The notes under the pieces were generated by a model, which ran no database searches, was not told where the DNA came from, and saw nothing but the letters and a program-made list of their open reading frames with translations. Shown in pieces: positions 40,394-46,622 of a stretch of DNA of 64,000 bases (position 1 is its first letter; every line of letters begins with the position of its first letter). Made by a program: the position numbers and the translations under genes. Source of the DNA: Terriglobia bacterium (GTDB lineage Bacteria > Acidobacteriota > Terriglobia > 2-12-FULL-54-10); contig CAXVYR010000002.1 of assembly GCA_963666975.2 (NCBI GenBank), positions 64,001 through 128,000 of the forward strand. Reading direction: 5' to 3'.

Positions 40394-41173
40394 ATGACGC
40401 CGGTCGCCCTGACCATCGCGGGGTCGGACCCATCCGGCGGGGCGGGCATTCAGGCGGACTTGAAGACGTTCCATCAGTACGGTGTATACGGAACCAGCGT
40501 TCTGACTCTGCTGACGGTCCAGAACACATGCCGCGTCAGTTCCGTCGAGCACCTGAGGCCGGACTTTGTTCTGGCGCAACTGGATGCGGTGCTGGAAGAC
40601 ATGACTCCCCAAGCAGCCAAGACTGGAGCCCTCGGCACGCTGGAGATTATTGAGGCAATCGCGGAAAGAGCCGCTCAATTCACCTTTCCCCTGGTGGTGG
40701 ACCCGGTCATGATCAGCAAGCACGGAGCGTCTTTGATCCACGAAGACGCGCGGACCACCCTGGCCCGGAAACTGCTCCCGCACGCAACGCTGGTCACCCC
40801 GAATGTCCACGAGGCGATGGCGCTTTCGGGTCTCGAGTTTCACGGCATGGCTTCGCTGCAAGAGGCGGCCAAAGCGATTGCCGGATTAGGTCCACGGGCA
40901 GTCCTGGTGAAAGGCGGCCATCTGGTGGAGGAAGCCGCCGATGTTCTCTACACGGAGAACCGTTTCCAAACCTTTTCCGCAAAGCGCATCGCGACCTCGC
41001 ATACGCACGGCACCGGCTGCACCTATTCGGCTGCGATCACCGCAGAGCTGGCCAAAGGAGCGGAGCTGATCCGCGCGGTGGAGGCTGCCAAGCGATACAT
41101 CACCCGGGCCATCGAAACTAATCCCGCTCTCGGGCACGGCTACGGGCCGGTAAACCATATGGCGCCGATCTGA
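40394..41173 (+). CDS. thiD: hydroxymethylpyrimidine/phosphomethylpyrimidine kinase
   Basis: LTIAGSDPSGGAGIQADLKT, VVDPVM, VKGGH, THGTGCT motifs. Confidence 0.96.
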   Translation: MTPVALTIAGSDPSGGAGIQADLKTFHQYGVYGTSVLTLLTVQNTCRVSSVEHLRPDFVLAQLDAVLEDMTPQAAKTGALGTLEIIEAIAERAAQFTFPLVVDPVMISKHGASLIHEDARTTLARKLLPHATLVTPNVHEAMALSGLEFHGMASLQEAAKAIAGLGPRAVLVKGGHLVEEAADVLYTENRFQTFSAKRIATSHTHGTGCTYSAAITAELAKGAELIRAVEAAKRYITRAIETNPALGHGYGPVNHMAPI

Positions 41174-41207
41174 CCCGATTTCTTTTTCTATGAGAAAATA
41201 GTGAAGT

Positions 41208-42617
41208 ATGAACGTCGTCCTCCTATCAACCTATGAACTGGGCCGTCAACCGTTCGGGCTGGCCTCGCCGGCGGCATGGCTTCGGGAGGCTGGCGTTACC
41301 GTCACCTGTTTGGATCTCTCCCGCTCCGCCTTCGAGGAAGAACTGATCCGCTCGGCGGACTTGGTGGGTTTCTACGTTCCCATGCACACGGCCACCCGCA
41401 TCGCTACGCTTCTGGCCGGACGAGTAAGCAAGTTGAACCCTCGGGCGCATATGTGTTTCTTCGGTCTTTATGCTCCCGTCAACGAGAGCTTCCTGCGAAA
41501 GCTGGGGGCCGAGACGATCCTCGGCGGCGAGTTTGAAGCAGGACTGCTGTCGCTCGTCGAAAGGTTGCAGACAACGAATCACCGGCCTGCCGGGCTCCCG
41601 CAGCACGAGCCGGTGATTTCAACCGCCCGGCAAAGGTTCCGCGTCCCGGACCGCAGGGGGCTCCCCGCTCTGCGAAACTATGCAAAGCTCGATTGGGGCA
41701 ACGGCGAACAGCGCTTGGTTGGGTACACGGAAGCGAGCCGAGGCTGCAAGCACCTTTGCCGCCACTGCCCGGTTGTGCCGGTCTATCAGGGCCGTTTCCG
41801 GGTTGTCCAGCGAGAAGTGGTGCTGGAGGACATCCGGCGGCAGGTTGCGGCGGGAGCCTCGCACATCACCTTCGGCGACCCGGACTTCTTCAACGGCGTC
41901 GGACATTCCATTGCGCTCGTGGAGGAATTCCACCGCGAGCATCCACGCCTCACCTATGACGCCACGATCAAGATCGAGCATCTGCTCCAGCATGCGCGGC
42001 ATCTGAGAACGCTCCGCGACACCGGCTGCCTGTTTGTAACGAGCGCAGTCGAAGCTGTCGATGACCGAGTGCTGCACCTTCTGGACAAAGGCCACACGCG
42101 GGCAGATTTTGTGCAAGTGGTAAAGCTGGTTCGCAATGCGGGACTGCATCTGTCACCCACCTTTGTAACCTTTACCCCGTGGACATCGCTGGAAGGTTAT
42201 CTGGATATGCTTTCGCTTATGGCCGAACTGGACATGGCGGAGAGTATCTCCCCCATCCAGTTGGCCATTCGGTTGCTGATCCCCGCCGGCTCGAAGCTCC
42301 TGGAACTGGCTGAGGTTCGCGAACAGGTTGGAGAATTCGACGAGGGGAAACTCAGTTATCCGTGGATGCATTGCGATGCGCGAGTGGAACAGTTGTTTCA
42401 GGACGTCCGCGAGACCGTGGGACGGACGGAAGCTCTCGGCCAAACCCGCAGCGAAATCTTTCCCCAAGTTTGGGAGTTGGCCGAGCGCGCGGCTGGAAAG
42501 AAGGGCGGAGCCACTTTTAAGATGTCCCCGCTCCCCGCACGGGCGACGCTTCCCTACATCAACGAGCCGTGGTTCTGCTGAGCGGAGCCTACCGCAGAGC
42601 AGTTTGCTCTGGTTTAG
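41208..42617 (+). CDS. B12-binding-like radical SAM selenoprotein with CUAEP tail (UGA at 42579-42581 read as Sec; 469 aa)
   Basis: YELGRQPFG N-terminus and SRGCKHLCRHCP (CxxxCxxC). The C-terminus reads NEPWFC-UGA-AEPTAEQFALV-UAG, with a SECIS-like hairpin directly downstream of the UGA. Confidence 0.9.
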
Positions 42618-42619
42618 GC
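42587..42619 (+). promoter_or_regulatory. bacterial SECIS-like stem-loop
   Basis: GCCTA..CAGAGCA-GTT-TGCTCTG..TAGGC: a 7-bp upper stem with a G-first apical loop about 20 nt after the UGA. Confidence 0.75.
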
Positions 42620-42660
42620 AATGGCCGGAAATCAGAAGACGGGAGGCCGACCGAACTACA

Positions 42661-42690
42661 ATCAGAGCCGCGACCGCGAGGGAGCGGTTC
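42661..42690. repeat. REP-like element (ATCAGAGCCGCGAC..GGAGCGGTT family)
   Basis: Second copy at 54871-54900. Confidence 0.75.
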
Positions 42691-42717
42691 TTCTGCCTTC
42701 AGCCCTTCTCCGCTTGC

Positions 42718-44067
42718 ATGATGAATCGATCCCAGCAAAATTCGTTAGTCAAACTCGCTCAGAAAACAGTGCAGAAAAACCGTCTTTTACTGCTGTTCAC
42801 CACCACGGGCTATCAGGCCGCCGCTTTCAAGGAGGCTGCCGATAAGCTCGGCATCGCCGCCGTGGCGGGCAGCGACCGCTGCCACGTATTGGAAGACCCC
42901 TGGCGGGATGGCGCTATCCCTCTGCGATTTGAAGAGCCCGCCGCCTCGGCAAAAATGGTCGTCGAGTACGCCGCCAAGCATCTGCTCGACGCCGTCATTC
43001 CAATCGGCGACAAACCCACCCTTACCGCTGCAATGGCCTGCCAAGCGCTCGGGCTGTTGCACAACTCTCCCGCTGCCGTTCGGGCCTGCCGTGACAAGTA
43101 TCAGTTCCGCCAGCTTCTCCAGGCCGCAGGGGTGGATGGCCCCGCCTTCTGCAGGCTTCCCGCGCACAGCGATTCTCCTCCTATTCCACCACCCGGTGTT
43201 GGATTTCCCTGCGTCCTGAAACCGTTGTCGCTCTCGGCCAGCCGGGGAGTCATCCGGGCGGACAACACAGAGCAATTCACCGGCGCATTCAACAGAATCC
43301 AGGCGCTGCTCAAAACGCCGGACATCCGAAGAACCAAAGATGAGGCAATCGAGTGGATACTAGCCGAAAACTACCTGGAAGGGCCGGAAGTGGCTTTGGA
43401 GGGAATTCTCGACCGGGGCGCTTTGCAGGTCCTGGCTCTGTTTGACAAGCCGGACCCGCTGGAAGGTCCCTACTTTGAGGAGACGATCTACACGACTCCT
43501 TCCCGTTTACCCGAAGCCGTCCAGAACCAAATAGTAAAGTGCGCGGAGCAAGCCATCGCGGCGGTGGGACTGTCCCACGGGCCGATCCATGCCGAGCTGC
43601 GGCTGACGCCACAAGGCCCCAGGGTTCTGGAAGTGGCGGCCCGCTCGATTGGCGGTCTCTGCTCGCGGTCGCTGCGGTTTGATGCGGGCATGTCGCTCGA
43701 AGAGCTGATTATCCGCCATGCCCTGAACTGGCCCATCGGCTCGGTGCGCCGCGAGGATGCCGCCTCCGGGGTGATGATGATTCCGGTTCCCGCAGCAGGA
43801 GTGCTGCTTGAGGTAAGGGGTCAAGAGAAGGCGTTCGAAACTCCAGGCATCGAGGAGATCCGCATTACGGCCAAAATACAGCAGACTCTGGTTCCCTGGC
43901 CGGAGGGCTCCAGCTATCTGGGATTTATTTTCGCGCGCGCGGCGTCATCTTCGTCTGCCACGGCATCTTCCCCAGCGTCTGCCCCAGCGGAGGTTGAGGC
44001 CGCCTTGAGAACCGCCCACAGCAAGTTGCAATTTGTGATTTCCCCTGCCCTGCCCGTGGTGCGCTAG
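42718..44067 (+). CDS. ATP-grasp ligase (L-amino acid ligase-like)
   Basis: CRDKY, GFPCVLKPLSLSASRGVIRAD, ENYLEGPEVALEG, GPIHAELR..LEVAARSIGG motifs. Confidence 0.9.
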   Translation: MMNRSQQNSLVKLAQKTVQKNRLLLLFTTTGYQAAAFKEAADKLGIAAVAGSDRCHVLEDPWRDGAIPLRFEEPAASAKMVVEYAAKHLLDAVIPIGDKPTLTAAMACQALGLLHNSPAAVRACRDKYQFRQLLQAAGVDGPAFCRLPAHSDSPPIPPPGVGFPCVLKPLSLSASRGVIRADNTEQFTGAFNRIQALLKTPDIRRTKDEAIEWILAENYLEGPEVALEGILDRGALQVLALFDKPDPLEGPYFEETIYTTPSRLPEAVQNQIVKCAEQAIAAVGLSHGPIHAELRLTPQGPRVLEVAARSIGGLCSRSLRFDAGMSLEELIIRHALNWPIGSVRREDAASGVMMIPVPAAGVLLEVRGQEKAFETPGIEEIRITAKIQQTLVPWPEGSSYLGFIFARAASSSSATASSPASAPAEVEAALRTAHSKLQFVISPALPVVR

Positions 44068-44095
44068 GCGCGGCAGGACATTTCCCGGACGGGAT

Positions 44096-44377
44096 TTACT
44101 GCTTGGTCTGCTCAGGGACATAACCCGGAGGAAGCGCAGCGCCTTCGCCGAAAAAGTAATCCTCCATCTGCTGACGAACGACCTTTTGCGCCTCGCGCTC
44201 CACCAGGTTGAGCCGGTATTCGTTGACGATCATCTTCAGGTGCTCCAGCCACAATTTCCAGGCGTCTGCCGAGACATTCTCGTAGATGCGCTTGCCGAGT
44301 TCGTTGTTGAAGGGAGGCTCCTCCATCCCTGGCATCTCGCGTTGAAACTTGACGCATTTCACCATTTTTGGTGCCAT
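44096..44377 (-). CDS. yggX: Fe(II)-trafficking / oxidative damage protection protein (YggX family)
   Basis: MVKCVK...ELGKRIYENVS.DAW..W...MIVNEYRLN motif. Confidence 0.92.
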   Translation of the reverse strand: MAPKMVKCVKFQREMPGMEEPPFNNELGKRIYENVSADAWKLWLEHLKMIVNEYRLNLVEREAQKVVRQQMEDYFFGEGAALPPGYVPEQTKQ

Positions 44378-44555
44378 TTTTCCTCCCCTTGTGGCGGCTC
44401 TTGCTGCCACCGAAAGCGATCGAATGAACAGGATACACTGATCCCGCGAGCAATCAGGCTACGAGCATTCTCCGCGCCTTGTCAACGTTTAAGTATTTTT
44501 CGGTAATGGGAAGGAAGTTGAAAACCTCCTCCCCACTGCGATAACATATCTATAC

Positions 44556-45371
44556 ATGGATGTATATGAGGAAATCACGCGACTGCGGAATTCTGGGATC
44601 AAGGCGGCCCTGGCTACCATAGTCAACGTTCGCGGCTCGATTCCCAGTTTTGAGTCCGCAAAGCTTTTGGTCCGCGAGGACGGCTCGATCGTAGGCACGG
44701 TGGGGGGAGGCTGCGTGGAGGCTGAGGTGTGGGCTGCCGCCCGCCAGGTGATCCAGGAAGAGAAGCCCCGCAAGCTGACTTTTGATCTGAACAACGATCC
44801 CTCCTACGATACCGGGCTGCTCTGTGGCGGAACCGTGGAGGTCTTTGTGGAGCCTATTCTTCCCACCCCGTTCCTGTACATTTTCGGAGCGGGCCACGTC
44901 TCTCTCAGCCTGTCCAAAGTGGCAACCGTCGCCGGGTTCAGCACGATCATCATTGACGACCGCGACACCTATGCCAACCGGGAGCGCTTCCCCGAGGCGG
45001 CGGAGATTTACGCCGATGATTACGAGAAAGTTTTCGACCGGCTGCTTCCCAATAGCTCCTCATTTTTGATTGCCGTCACACGCGGGCATCGCGACGACAT
45101 GCGCGTGCTGCGCTGGGCGGTGGGGACGGCGACCCGTTACGTGGGCATGATCGGCAGTAAGCGCAAGGTCCTGGAGATCGTCAAACACTTGGAGCAGGAA
45201 GGGATCGCCCGGCCGCAGTTTGAGCGGGTGCACGCCCCGGTTGGCCTGGATATCGGCGCCGTCACTCCGGAAGAAATTGCCGTCAGCGTTGTGGCAGAGA
45301 TGATTGCCGTGCGCCGCAGCGCCCTCCAGGACGCCAAACCCCACCCCAAGTCGATCCTGGCAATTTCCTGA
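44556..45371 (+). CDS. xdhC: XdhC/CoxI family molybdenum cofactor chaperone
   Basis: GTVGGGCVE, CGG, IFGAGHV, TRGH..D, GMIGSKRK, APVGLDIGAVTPEEIA motifs. Confidence 0.93.
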   Translation: MDVYEEITRLRNSGIKAALATIVNVRGSIPSFESAKLLVREDGSIVGTVGGGCVEAEVWAAARQVIQEEKPRKLTFDLNNDPSYDTGLLCGGTVEVFVEPILPTPFLYIFGAGHVSLSLSKVATVAGFSTIIIDDRDTYANRERFPEAAEIYADDYEKVFDRLLPNSSSFLIAVTRGHRDDMRVLRWAVGTATRYVGMIGSKRKVLEIVKHLEQEGIARPQFERVHAPVGLDIGAVTPEEIAVSVVAEMIAVRRSALQDAKPHPKSILAIS

Positions 45372-45375
45372 CGCG

Positions 45376-46020
45376 ATGGAACCCGTGCCTCTTCCCGACC
45401 CTCCCTCCAAAGCTGTGGCGGGAATCATCCTGGCCGCCGGTGAGTCGCGGCGCATGGGGCGCGACAAAGCGCTCCTTCCTTTGGGGCAATGGAGCTTTCT
45501 GGAGCATTTGGCCGGGGCTCTGCAAGGAGAGGTTTCTCCGCTCCTGGTGGTTCTCGGATACCACGCGCAGGAGATCGAACGCCAAATTCCTCCCGCCGAT
45601 GCCCTCGTTGTCCTGCGAAATCCGAACTATTCGCTGGGACAACTGAGTTCCTTGCAGGTGGCGTTGCGGCATATCGAAAATCAACCGGTGGCGGGGGCTC
45701 TGGTATGTCTGGTGGACCATCCGGCAATCACCAAAAAGGTGGTCCGGTTGCTGCTGGAACGATTTGCGAAAACACAGGCGCCGATCCTGATCCCAACCTG
45801 CCGGGGGCGACGAGGACATCCGGTGCTGTTTGCCCGCCGCTTGTTCCAGGAATTGCTGGACGCGCCGCTGGAGGAGGGAGCGCGGTCGGTGGTCCGGAAA
45901 CATGCTGCGGAAGTGGAGTTGGCGGAAACCGGCGAGGAAGGAATTCTGCTGGATATTGACAAGCCGGAGGACTATCAGGCGTTGCTGGCGAGGCGGGATA
46001 TGCCGGCTGAATCTGTCTGA
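45376..46020 (+). CDS. mocA: molybdenum cofactor cytidylyltransferase (MocA-like)
   Basis: ILAAGESRRMGRDKALL, GQLSSL, LVDHP, RRGHPVLF, DID motifs; next to xdhC. Confidence 0.85.
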   Translation: MEPVPLPDPPSKAVAGIILAAGESRRMGRDKALLPLGQWSFLEHLAGALQGEVSPLLVVLGYHAQEIERQIPPADALVVLRNPNYSLGQLSSLQVALRHIENQPVAGALVCLVDHPAITKKVVRLLLERFAKTQAPILIPTCRGRRGHPVLFARRLFQELLDAPLEEGARSVVRKHAAEVELAETGEEGILLDIDKPEDYQALLARRDMPAESV

Positions 46021-46031
46021 TAGGATCCGGA

Positions 46032-46388
46032 TCACTGGAGATGGCGAAACGCCTCCCGCAAAGCGTCTTCAGCCAGCACGCCGGCATGACCGCTTGCAGG
46101 CGGCAGGCCGCCGAGTCCTGCACTGAGGTCGGCGGCAGAAAGCTTTTTTGCTTCCTCCAGCGACTTCCCTTTGATGAGTTCGGTGAGCAGCGACCCGCAG
46201 GCGATGGACGCCACGCAGCCACGGGTTTTGAAGCGGACGTCCCGGAGTTGCCCCTGCTCGGCCAGCAGGGACAGTTGCATGATGTCTCCGCAGGCCGGGT
46301 TGCTGACCTCCACCGTCACGGCGGGGGGTGGAAGCTCTCCTACGTTTCGAGGATTCTGGAAGTGGTCGAGCAGCAAAGAGCTGTACAC
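46032..46388 (-). CDS. IscU/NifU N-terminal-like scaffold protein
   Basis: DHFQNPRNVG, NPACGD, FKTRGC; the third conserved Cys is replaced (GHAG). GTG start with GGAG RBS. Confidence 0.88.
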   Translation of the reverse strand: MYSSLLLDHFQNPRNVGELPPPAVTVEVSNPACGDIMQLSLLAEQGQLRDVRFKTRGCVASIACGSLLTELIKGKSLEEAKKLSAADLSAGLGGLPPASGHAGVLAEDALREAFRHLQ

Positions 46389-46622
46389 AAAGTCTCCAGT
46401 AATCTCAGACCAGTAATCTGAGAAAAGACCAGTAATCTCAGAAAAGAGTGGATTCGTCCAGCCCGCCGTGTTCGGTTTTAGCTTGCTGGGGCCGGGCATA
46501 CTAGCGTAGCGGAGAACAGGCATCGGCTCAAGGCCTAGTGCAAGGCCAGTACAAGCCCAAGATCAAAAGCAGGATCAAAAGCAAGATCACAAAGCAAGAT
46601 CACAAAGATAGTTCGGACCGTT

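Follow-up and report, generated by a model that had tools for sequence, protein, structure and literature searches.

A predicted ArsL-related radical SAM selenoprotein and its ATP-grasp ligase partner beside iron-sulfur genes of a Terriglobia bacterium

What is made by two adjacent genes of a Terriglobia bacterium, the first for a predicted radical S-adenosylmethionine (SAM) selenoprotein and the second for an ATP-grasp ligase, is the question raised by a 64,000-nucleotide stretch of its DNA (the window; positions 64,001 to 128,000 of contig CAXVYR010000002.1, assembly GCA_963666975.2). The original prediction proposed that the pair makes a peptide containing a carbon-arsenic or other carbon-metalloid bond, or a novel cofactor, or alternatively belongs to core metabolism. 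This interpretation was partly supported: the pair and its kinship to the arsenic enzyme ArsL hold, while the arsenic link and the assignment to core metabolism do not. The locus encodes an enzyme of the ArsL type whose tail, partner and context are all new. We tentatively propose, at somewhat less than an even chance, that the two genes form an accessory module beside iron or iron-sulfur (Fe-S) donor genes, in which a 3-amino-3-carboxypropyl (ACP) moiety would be transferred to an atom held on a Cys-selenocysteine tail and the product would then be ligated into a dipeptide.

The radical SAM protein matched the NCBIfam model NF040546, "CUAEP/CCAEP-tail radical SAM (seleno)protein", with 620 bits (membership threshold, 500 bits), its residues 3-467 lying on profile positions 1-467. 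The ArsL model NF040542 came second (287.2 bits, E 2.4e-85, residues 4-402), under its cut-off of 450 bits, and the remaining radical SAM models gave at most 53.8 bits. Judged by these scores, the protein is a member of NF040546 and a sister of ArsL, not ArsL itself; the family has a name and no assigned function. In Pfam, the Radical_SAM domain was recognized with 45.9 bits, and the match to B12-binding at the N-terminus was weak (19.9 bits versus a cut-off of 32.1). In an alignment of 36 sequences, the cluster motif CxxxCxxC (C180/C184/C187) is invariant, as are C274, C457, C/U458, E460, P461 and Q465, and C83 is conserved in at least 90%. Solved structures searched by sequence gave no match. 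An AlphaFold model built from the 36-row alignment had a mean predicted local distance difference test (pLDDT) score of 86.8 and a predicted template modelling (pTM) score of 0.88, with residues 440-446 forming a low-confidence linker ahead of the C-terminal tail.

ArsL, from the arsQML arsinothricin cluster, is the closest characterised relative and shares with the window protein both CxxxCxxC and a short Cys-rich C-terminal tail in the same position. In the accessible parts of two reports (10.1101/2024.02.01.577332, 10.64898/2026.04.29.721666), ArsL is described as cutting the C(gamma)-S bond of SAM to yield methylthioadenosine (MTA) and an ACP radical, which is added to As(III) bound by the cysteines of an RCCLKC motif at the C-terminus; ArsL lacking this tail still cleaves SAM to MTA and yields only 2-aminobutyrate. 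According to the same parts, no other radical SAM enzyme carrying the classical CxxxCxxC motif has so far been shown to make an ACP radical. In contrast to ArsL, the window protein ends in C-U-AEP, its Cys457-Sec458 dyad (Sec, selenocysteine) occupying the place of the arsenite-binding RCCLKC tail.

The open reading frame (ORF) as listed (41208-42581, ends including the stop) comprises 457 codons and terminates at the TGA. Read as Sec, this codon continues the frame (...EPWFC-U-AEPTAEQFALV) to a TAG at 42615-42617. A homologue scan of one genome per species returned at least 585 pattern matches, at least 571 of them encoding a relative of the radical SAM protein, and the neighbourhood counts given below rest on the best 80 loci of these relatives. 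At the position of codon 458, 67 of the 80 loci carry TGA (CU) and 11 carry TGC (CC); the other two are unreadable there, owing to a contig end and an apparent shift, respectively. The CU/CC-AEP tail motif was found in 78 of the 80. A second sample comprised 401 genomes of the window's phylum, the source genome (G000) counted in, which were searched with NF040546 at E <=1e-60 and with an alignment of 13 ligase sequences; of the 71 matches to NF040546 in this sample, 61 contain one in-frame TGA.

Immediately 3' of the TGA, RNA folding placed a hairpin resembling a selenocysteine insertion sequence (SECIS), with GUU at 42602-42604 as its apical loop. The stem is kept in 19 aligned tails from different lineages, and three of the five predicted pairs show changes on both sides; the same stretch also encodes the conserved tail, and its conservation is partly at the protein level. 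When positions 41000-44500 were compared with Rfam (E up to 1), no family matched; curated models of SECIS elements or riboswitches thus do not apply. The source genome encodes the Sec machinery at scores above the cut-offs (selB, 371.8 bits; selA, 563.5; selD, 349.5; tRNA-Sec, 72.8). Taken together, the hairpin, the Cys homologues, the invariant residues after the Sec codon and the Sec genes support the predicted assignment of the radical SAM gene as encoding a selenoprotein. As a separate observation, selD of this genome (G000:C4:1360322-1361257) itself holds one in-frame TGA, making the selenophosphate synthetase a putative selenoprotein too.

The ATG of the ligase gene lies at 42718, 100 nucleotides past the TAG of the radical SAM gene and on the same strand, which agrees with the approximately 100 bp proposed. 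Three Pfam domains were recognized in its product, namely ATP-grasp_4 (103.1 bits, cut-off 27), LAL_C2 (40.6, cut-off 29.4) and ATPgrasp_N (31.0, cut-off 27), all of which it shares with the L-amino acid ligases BL00235 and BacD/YwfE. No NCBIfam model reached its cut-off on the ligase, the best giving 98.3 bits versus 625. The nearest solved relative is BL00235 (3VOT; E 1.4e-36 over residues 61-407, 347 residues), and BacD/YwfE (3VMM, 3WNZ) matched at E 1.8e-17. Across 13 orthologues, K168, E293, R295, E305, R309, G312 and G313 are invariant, and these may correspond to catalytic residues of BacD. The DRCH motif noted in the N-terminal domain by the original prediction is indeed present; R54 is conserved in at least 90% of the 13 orthologues, and D, C and H are the majority residues. 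This motif forms part of a DRCH-x-L-x-DPW segment, which is specific to the family, lies outside the part aligned with BL00235 and sets the window ligase apart from both BL00235 and BacD. In the predicted model (mean pLDDT 85.3), DRCH borders a low-confidence loop. The second gene encodes an intact, predicted L-amino acid ligase of the ATP-grasp fold. A review table (PMC6920838) lists Met-Gly and Met-Met as the products of BL00235, whose own N-terminal substrate is therefore a 2-amino-4-X-butanoate.

The gap between the two genes contains a unit resembling a repetitive extragenic palindromic (REP) element, likewise as predicted. The genome matches this unit at 41 other places (e.g., loci L119-L125), which fall on both strands and are 83-100% identical to it (most at least 90%). 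Its copies sometimes occur as two or three within a few hundred bases (e.g., C4:1459540 and C4:1460105). A scan for promoters and terminators found none in the 100-nucleotide gap, and regional counts were not above those of shuffled sequences (1 vs 1.0; 3 vs 5.0). With regard to RNA, three metatranscriptome runs and one presumed RNA run consisted of short pieces mostly from other organisms, most contigs continuing in sequence that differs from the window, and contigs of exact identity covered the YggX region only. The coordinates of these features are collected in Table 1.

Table 1. Positions of the principal features in the window and the evidence on which each was assigned.
Feature	Position	Strand	Basis
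CUAEP-tail radical SAM selenoprotein (predicted), 469 aa, Sec458	41208..42617	+	NF040546 match, alignment, predicted model
In-frame TGA read as selenocysteine, residue 458	42579..42581	+	Frame continues; homologues have TGA/TGC
SECIS-like hairpin	42587..42619	+	Outer stem 42587-42591/42615-42619, inner stem 42595-42601/42605-42611
REP-like repeat unit, ~29 nt	about 42659..42688		Genome matches; lies in the 100-nt gap
L-amino-acid-ligase-type ATP-grasp enzyme (predicted), 449 aa, DRCH at 53-56	42718..44067	+	Pfam, 3VOT similarity, predicted model
YggX-type Fe(2+)-trafficking / oxidative-damage protection protein	44096..44410	-	NF003817, 123.3 bits (cut-off 74); PF04362

Co-occurrence of the two families, which the original prediction had proposed to score across genomes, was analyzed in both samples. 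In the 80 loci, gene presence was scored by phmmer with the window proteins as queries, and a ligase orthologue was defined by more than 100 bits (mostly 350-520). Of the 80 radical SAM loci, 54 contain such an orthologue; when only the 59 loci flanked by 2.5 kb or more on each side are counted, it is present in 43. Relative to the radical SAM gene, the ligase is located downstream on the same strand in 40 cases, downstream on the opposite strand in 11 and upstream on the same strand in three. The loci bearing the pair are labelled Acidobacteriota/Terriglobia, Methylomirabilota (NC10), Latescibacterota and Gemmatimonadota, and one derives from a metagenome-assembled genome (MAG) labelled Verrucomicrobia. 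The pair is conserved elsewhere, and hence the circumstance that the original prediction had named as speaking against it, namely that the two genes are not neighbours in other genomes, does not apply.

In the phylum sample, four weak ligase rows (141.5-175.6 bits) were removed as non-orthologues, all remaining matches scoring at least 428 bits. Both genes were detected in 68 genomes, the radical SAM gene alone in three, the ligase alone in 13 and neither in 317; related genomes are not independent, and the Fisher p-value of the co-occurrence was given no weight. One of the three genomes with only the radical SAM gene represents a partial match in a 71%-complete genome. The two genes lie within 5 kb of each other in 40 of the 68 genomes, on the same contig at distances of 5.5 kb to 4.2 Mb in seven, and on different contigs in 21, such that they are not adjacent in 28 of the 68. 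Beyond this phylum sample, the genomes of five loci without an adjacent ligase were searched, and an orthologue was located elsewhere in three of them (Chloroflexia, 487 bits; Bryobacterales, 553; Gemmatimonadales, 382+263). The joint presence and absence of the two genes, clear even when they are unlinked, supports their designation as a conserved functional pair. The family itself is patchy in its distribution: since NF040546 was found in only 71 of the 401 genomes and 58 of the 228 genera of the phylum, the module is accessory and not core metabolism.

The genes surrounding the pair were then considered. De novo clustering of the neighbouring ORFs in the 80 loci yielded three large genuine clusters, comprising the radical SAM protein (80), the ligase (55) and YggX (44); the other large clusters were rejected as shadow ORFs over these three genes or as low-complexity ORFs. 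A YggX gene thus occurs in 44 of the 80 loci. Among the 54 ligase-bearing loci, 43 contain YggX and seven others an NfuA-like gene (Fe-S_biosyn plus NifU domains), amounting to 50 of 54, and three of the remaining four end at a contig edge. YggX and the NfuA-like protein were never found together within one of these 54 loci. In Gemmatimonadota and Latescibacterota, the gene order is cysteine desulfurase, IscU, (Rrf2), NfuA-like, radical SAM and ligase; in Terriglobia it is MoaA, YggX, radical SAM and ligase. Among 12 loci in which the ligase is not linked to a radical SAM gene, or in whose genome that gene is missing, 10 have an NfuA-like or YggX gene adjoining the ligase, mostly tail to tail; in both exceptions the flank was only 1.5 kb long. 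The same tail-to-tail arrangement with YggX is seen for a diverged relative of the ligase (175.6 bits; G086:C352:3108-4461), whose genome lacks the radical SAM gene. This locus and the ligase-only genomes suggest that the link of the ligase to YggX or NfuA is older or tighter than its link to the radical SAM gene.

In the window itself, an ErpA-type carrier, MoaA and ThiD are encoded upstream of the pair, and YggX, an XdhC-family maturation factor, a MocA-like transferase and an IscU-like scaffold downstream. The YggX gene is convergent with that of the ligase, and its true start is probably downstream of the first GTG. Within 44556-46020, the XdhC-family aldehyde-oxidoreductase maturation factor (283.7 bits, cut-off 350) overlaps the ORF of the MocA/DVU_1551-like nucleotidyltransferase by 68 nucleotides as the ORFs are listed. 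The IscU-like gene (46032-46523) is in convergent orientation, and its product has an N-terminal extension of approximately 45 residues. In three genomes of the same class that lack the module, the YggX loci share no other window gene and hence offered no syntenic site at which insertion or deletion of the module could be compared. A fourth recurrent component of the neighbourhoods is DUF169 (PF02596), which was detected in eight of the 80 loci, among them L032 and L079; in four others (L040, L051, L054, L071) it lies between the radical SAM gene and the ligase.

Several loci depart from the usual organization. In a Pyrinomonadaceae MAG (L070:8603-11279), DUF169 comes next after the radical SAM selenoprotein gene, and then come the genes for a corrinoid-protein-associated methyltransferase, CpaM (244.9 bits, cut-off 180), and for a fusion protein of HgcAB-like type (332.2, cut-off 285), while the genome contains no ligase orthologue; this context, found in one of the 80 loci, may represent a methyl-transfer variant of the pathway. 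In Nonomuraea (L050:5129-12881), the radical SAM gene is of the Cys form (CC), with a divergent glutamate-cysteine-ligase-like gene upstream (TIGR01436, 234.3 bits, under the cut-off); downstream are a protein whose C-terminal part resembles the dioxygenase HilA (111 bits, under the cut-off) and DUF169. In a further relative (P0124), a PaaK-like adenylating enzyme lies in frame upstream. Depending on the lineage, three kinds of carboxylate-amine ligase therefore adjoin the family, namely the L-amino acid ligase (in the great majority), the glutamate-cysteine-ligase-like protein and the PaaK-like enzyme, which fits the product being an amino acid destined for ligation. In two further loci, labelled Dormiibacterota (L049:6270-7571) and Acidobacteriota (L058:8552-9835), a phage-type integrase gene lies directly 3' of the radical SAM gene, in the usual place of the ligase, and aconitase is encoded upstream in both.

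On this basis, the following sequence of reactions is proposed. The radical SAM enzyme would cleave the C(gamma)-S bond of SAM in the manner of ArsL and transfer the ACP group to a soft atom X, held by Cys457 and Sec458 in the flexible C-terminus. The simplest assumption is that ArsL's reaction takes place here on another atom, since the two enzymes are sisters that differ in their tails, the invariant tail of the window enzyme and its homologues usually having Sec as its key residue. An amino acid resembling methionine, 2-amino-4-(X)butanoate, would result, and the ligase may couple it with another amino acid into a dipeptide. YggX or NfuA would serve the radical SAM enzyme by providing or repairing its iron or Fe-S clusters, or may donate X. 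Candidates for X include S, Se, As, Sb, Hg or another atom. The Fe-S context favours sulfur, selenium or plain cluster supply; a metal or metalloid is kept possible by the CpaM/HgcAB-like locus and by the link of Cys-Sec dyads to mercury- and organometal-handling proteins. The logic of the bacilysin and phosphinothricin tripeptide pathways may apply here too, an unusual amino-acid moiety derived from SAM or another precursor being joined through an ATP-dependent amide bond. Unlike such warhead-peptide pathways, no exporter, resistance, self-resistance or peptide-assembly gene recurs in the neighbourhoods of this module.

A number of observations weigh against the proposed transfer and ligation. 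ACP transfer is extrapolated from a sister family to which the protein would not itself be assigned (287 bits versus 450), and by its predicted fold the protein belongs with radical SAM enzymes of the B12-domain type (AprD4, MgmA, TsrM, OxsB, MiaB), which use 5'-deoxyadenosyl or methyl chemistry. The ligase occurs without the radical SAM gene in 13 of the 401 genomes (five of the 13 are less than 90% complete, and one, G024, is an unpublished genome); when five of these genomes, 97-99% complete, were rechecked with NF040546, nothing exceeded 61.7 bits, which implies that the ligase is not strictly dependent on the radical SAM product. Conversely, the Nonomuraea and Pyrinomonadaceae genomes hold only distant ligases (125 and 140 bits, respectively) and no orthologue. 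YggX is not specific to the module, since it was found in 161 of the 401 genomes of the phylum (the unpublished G152 counted in); in the largest family of the same class, all 33 genomes contain YggX and five the module. A module-specific YggX subfamily was considered and rejected: in a maximum-likelihood tree of 41 sequences, 20 with and 21 without the module, the two sorts interleave with nine label changes, and the tree, whose bootstrap is not settled, follows taxonomy and contains no module clade. As far as this tree indicates, YggX is therefore a resident gene next to which the module sits, not a dedicated paralogue. Finally, ORFs carrying both domains contribute little as evidence of fusion. 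Three of seven long relatives combine the radical SAM and ATP-grasp domains in one ORF (P0123, P0125, P0126, from public assemblies; 860-877 aa), and these were rejected as true fusions, their junctions lacking the CU/CC-AEP motif and reading as though the frame of the tail had shifted ("VVLLRRA", for example); artefacts of assembly or gene calling, or real frame changes, may account for them.

As a special case of the proposed ACP transfer, the radical may be captured by sulfide or selenide that is either bound to the Cys-Sec tail or withdrawn from an Fe-S cluster sacrificed for the purpose, an alternative that is unlikely. The resulting (seleno)homocysteine-type amino acid would be converted by the ligase into a low-molecular-weight thiol or selenol dipeptide, and NfuA or YggX would rebuild the cluster. 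NfuA is known to rebuild the consumed cluster of lipoyl synthase. Consistent with sulfur or selenium insertion are the adjacency of YggX or NfuA-like genes in nearly all ligase-bearing loci, the IscS-IscU-Rrf2-NfuA series directly upstream in Gemmatimonadota and Latescibacterota, the glutamate-cysteine-ligase-like neighbour in Nonomuraea, the sulfur-inserting MiaB and RimO among the fold matches, and methionine as a substrate of the closest solved ligase. The protein, however, contains no evident auxiliary-cluster motif, its additional conserved cysteines being limited to C274, C457/U458 and C83 (in at least 90%), and the formation of homocysteine from SAM would be circular. The Fe-S adjacency may only mirror the cluster requirements of any radical SAM enzyme, and YggX is resident rather than specific to the module.

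Rather unlikely is canonical or B12-type chemistry, in which a 5'-deoxyadenosyl radical or a methyl group would act on a small molecule or peptide, the Cys-Sec tail serving as a redox or H-atom relay and the ligase acting before or after on the same substrate. The structural comparison is its principal argument: in a Foldseek search with the predicted model, AprD4 was the best match (E 7e-15, TM 0.65/0.67), followed by MgmA, TsrM, OxsB, CysS and TokK, with MiaB and RimO also present, and the weak B12-binding match at the N-terminus points in the same direction. By sequence, however, ArsL is far nearer than any of the B12-type models. ArsL shares the architecture and CxxxCxxC, yet it makes the ACP radical, as described in the accessible parts of the reports cited for it (10.1101/2024.02.01.577332, 10.64898/2026.04.29.721666), and the fold thus does not decide the chemistry.

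That X is arsenic or antimony, the amino acid being arsinothricin-like and delivered in the form of a dipeptide that would be a "Trojan horse" antibiotic or else a product of detoxification, is improbable. This view draws on ArsL as the nearest characterised relative, on the occurrence of Cys-Sec dyads in mercury- and organometal-handling proteins, which is mentioned in the accessible part of a preprint by Haft (10.1101/2022.07.06.499078), and on the order of radical SAM, DUF169, CpaM and HgcAB-like genes in Pyrinomonadaceae, which recalls ArsL followed by ArsM. The arsenic link advanced by the original prediction found no support: the arsenite-binding RCCLKC tail is missing, replaced by C-U-AEP, and Pfam and NCBIfam scans of 201 neighbour proteins (84 + 94 + 13 + 10) revealed no ars, arsM, ACR3-type or other arsenic-transport gene, again unlike the arsinothricin cluster, the window enzyme having an ATP-grasp ligase as its partner and YggX, NfuA and MoaA as its context. 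Neither an exporter nor a self-resistance gene recurs, the ligase and YggX being the sole large real neighbour clusters, and the HgcAB-like/CpaM context is confined to a single locus.

A modification of protein, in which ACP would be placed on a residue of YggX, NfuA or another protein and the ATP-grasp enzyme would amidate or extend its carboxylate, is very improbable. In the diphthamide pathway, the step of Dph2 is followed by an ATP-dependent amidation, and the window pair parallels this logic. Dph2 also makes an ACP radical, according to the accessible parts of the ArsL reports (10.1101/2024.02.01.577332, 10.64898/2026.04.29.721666). The radical SAM protein has no sequence relation to Dph2, and a similar logic, in which a SAM-derived amino-acid moiety is followed by an ATP-dependent amide bond, is possible. 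The adjacency and mutual exclusion of YggX and the NfuA-like protein would suit such targets, as would a Cys that is invariant in all 14 aligned YggX sequences. On the other hand, the ligase contains LAL_C2 and aligns over 347 residues with a ligase of free amino acids, and of the 68 genomes in which the pair is complete, at least 26 gave no YggX match at E <=1e-10, in addition to YggX not being specific to the module. A complex prediction for the ligase (residues 18-449) with YggX (score 0.00, mark 0.32) argues neither for nor against binding. That the genes are unrelated neighbours held together by synteny alone, as might be supposed from the many related Acidobacteriota among the 80 loci and the resulting non-independence of the adjacency counts, is hardly credible in view of the three arrangements across several phylum labels, the co-occurrence in 28 genomes where the genes are not adjacent and the absence of both from 317 of 401.

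Returning to the proposed ACP transfer and dipeptide ligation, the literature provides little precedent for the pair. One paper was found that mentions NF040546, and in its accessible part the family is called uncharacterised (10.1101/2022.07.06.499078). Searches to which subscription journals and preprint supplements lay outside found no paper on a ligase partnership of NF040546, and nothing relevant on ArsL with ATP-grasp or on the 3-amino-3-carboxypropyl radical with selenocysteine. A more specific version of the proposal, decidedly unlikely as it stands, is that an unknown Se/S-containing or metal-carbon methionine-like amino acid, made by ArsL-type radical chemistry, would become a dipeptide cofactor for the delivery or protection of Fe-S in aerobic soil bacteria. 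If true, such an Fe-S dipeptide cofactor would constitute a new low-molecular-weight thiol or selenol system, and the enzyme would perform a second known type of reaction among the ACP-radical CxxxCxxC enzymes. NF040546 is much larger than its sister ArsL, with at least 571 species genomes, and consists mostly of selenoproteins. With a dedicated ligase as partner and an Fe-S rather than an arsenic context, this uncharacterised family becomes a pathway of two enzymes that is open to testing and has a predicted class of product; the module also points to selenium being widely used by Acidobacteriota, Methylomirabilota, Chloroflexota and Gemmatimonadota of soils.

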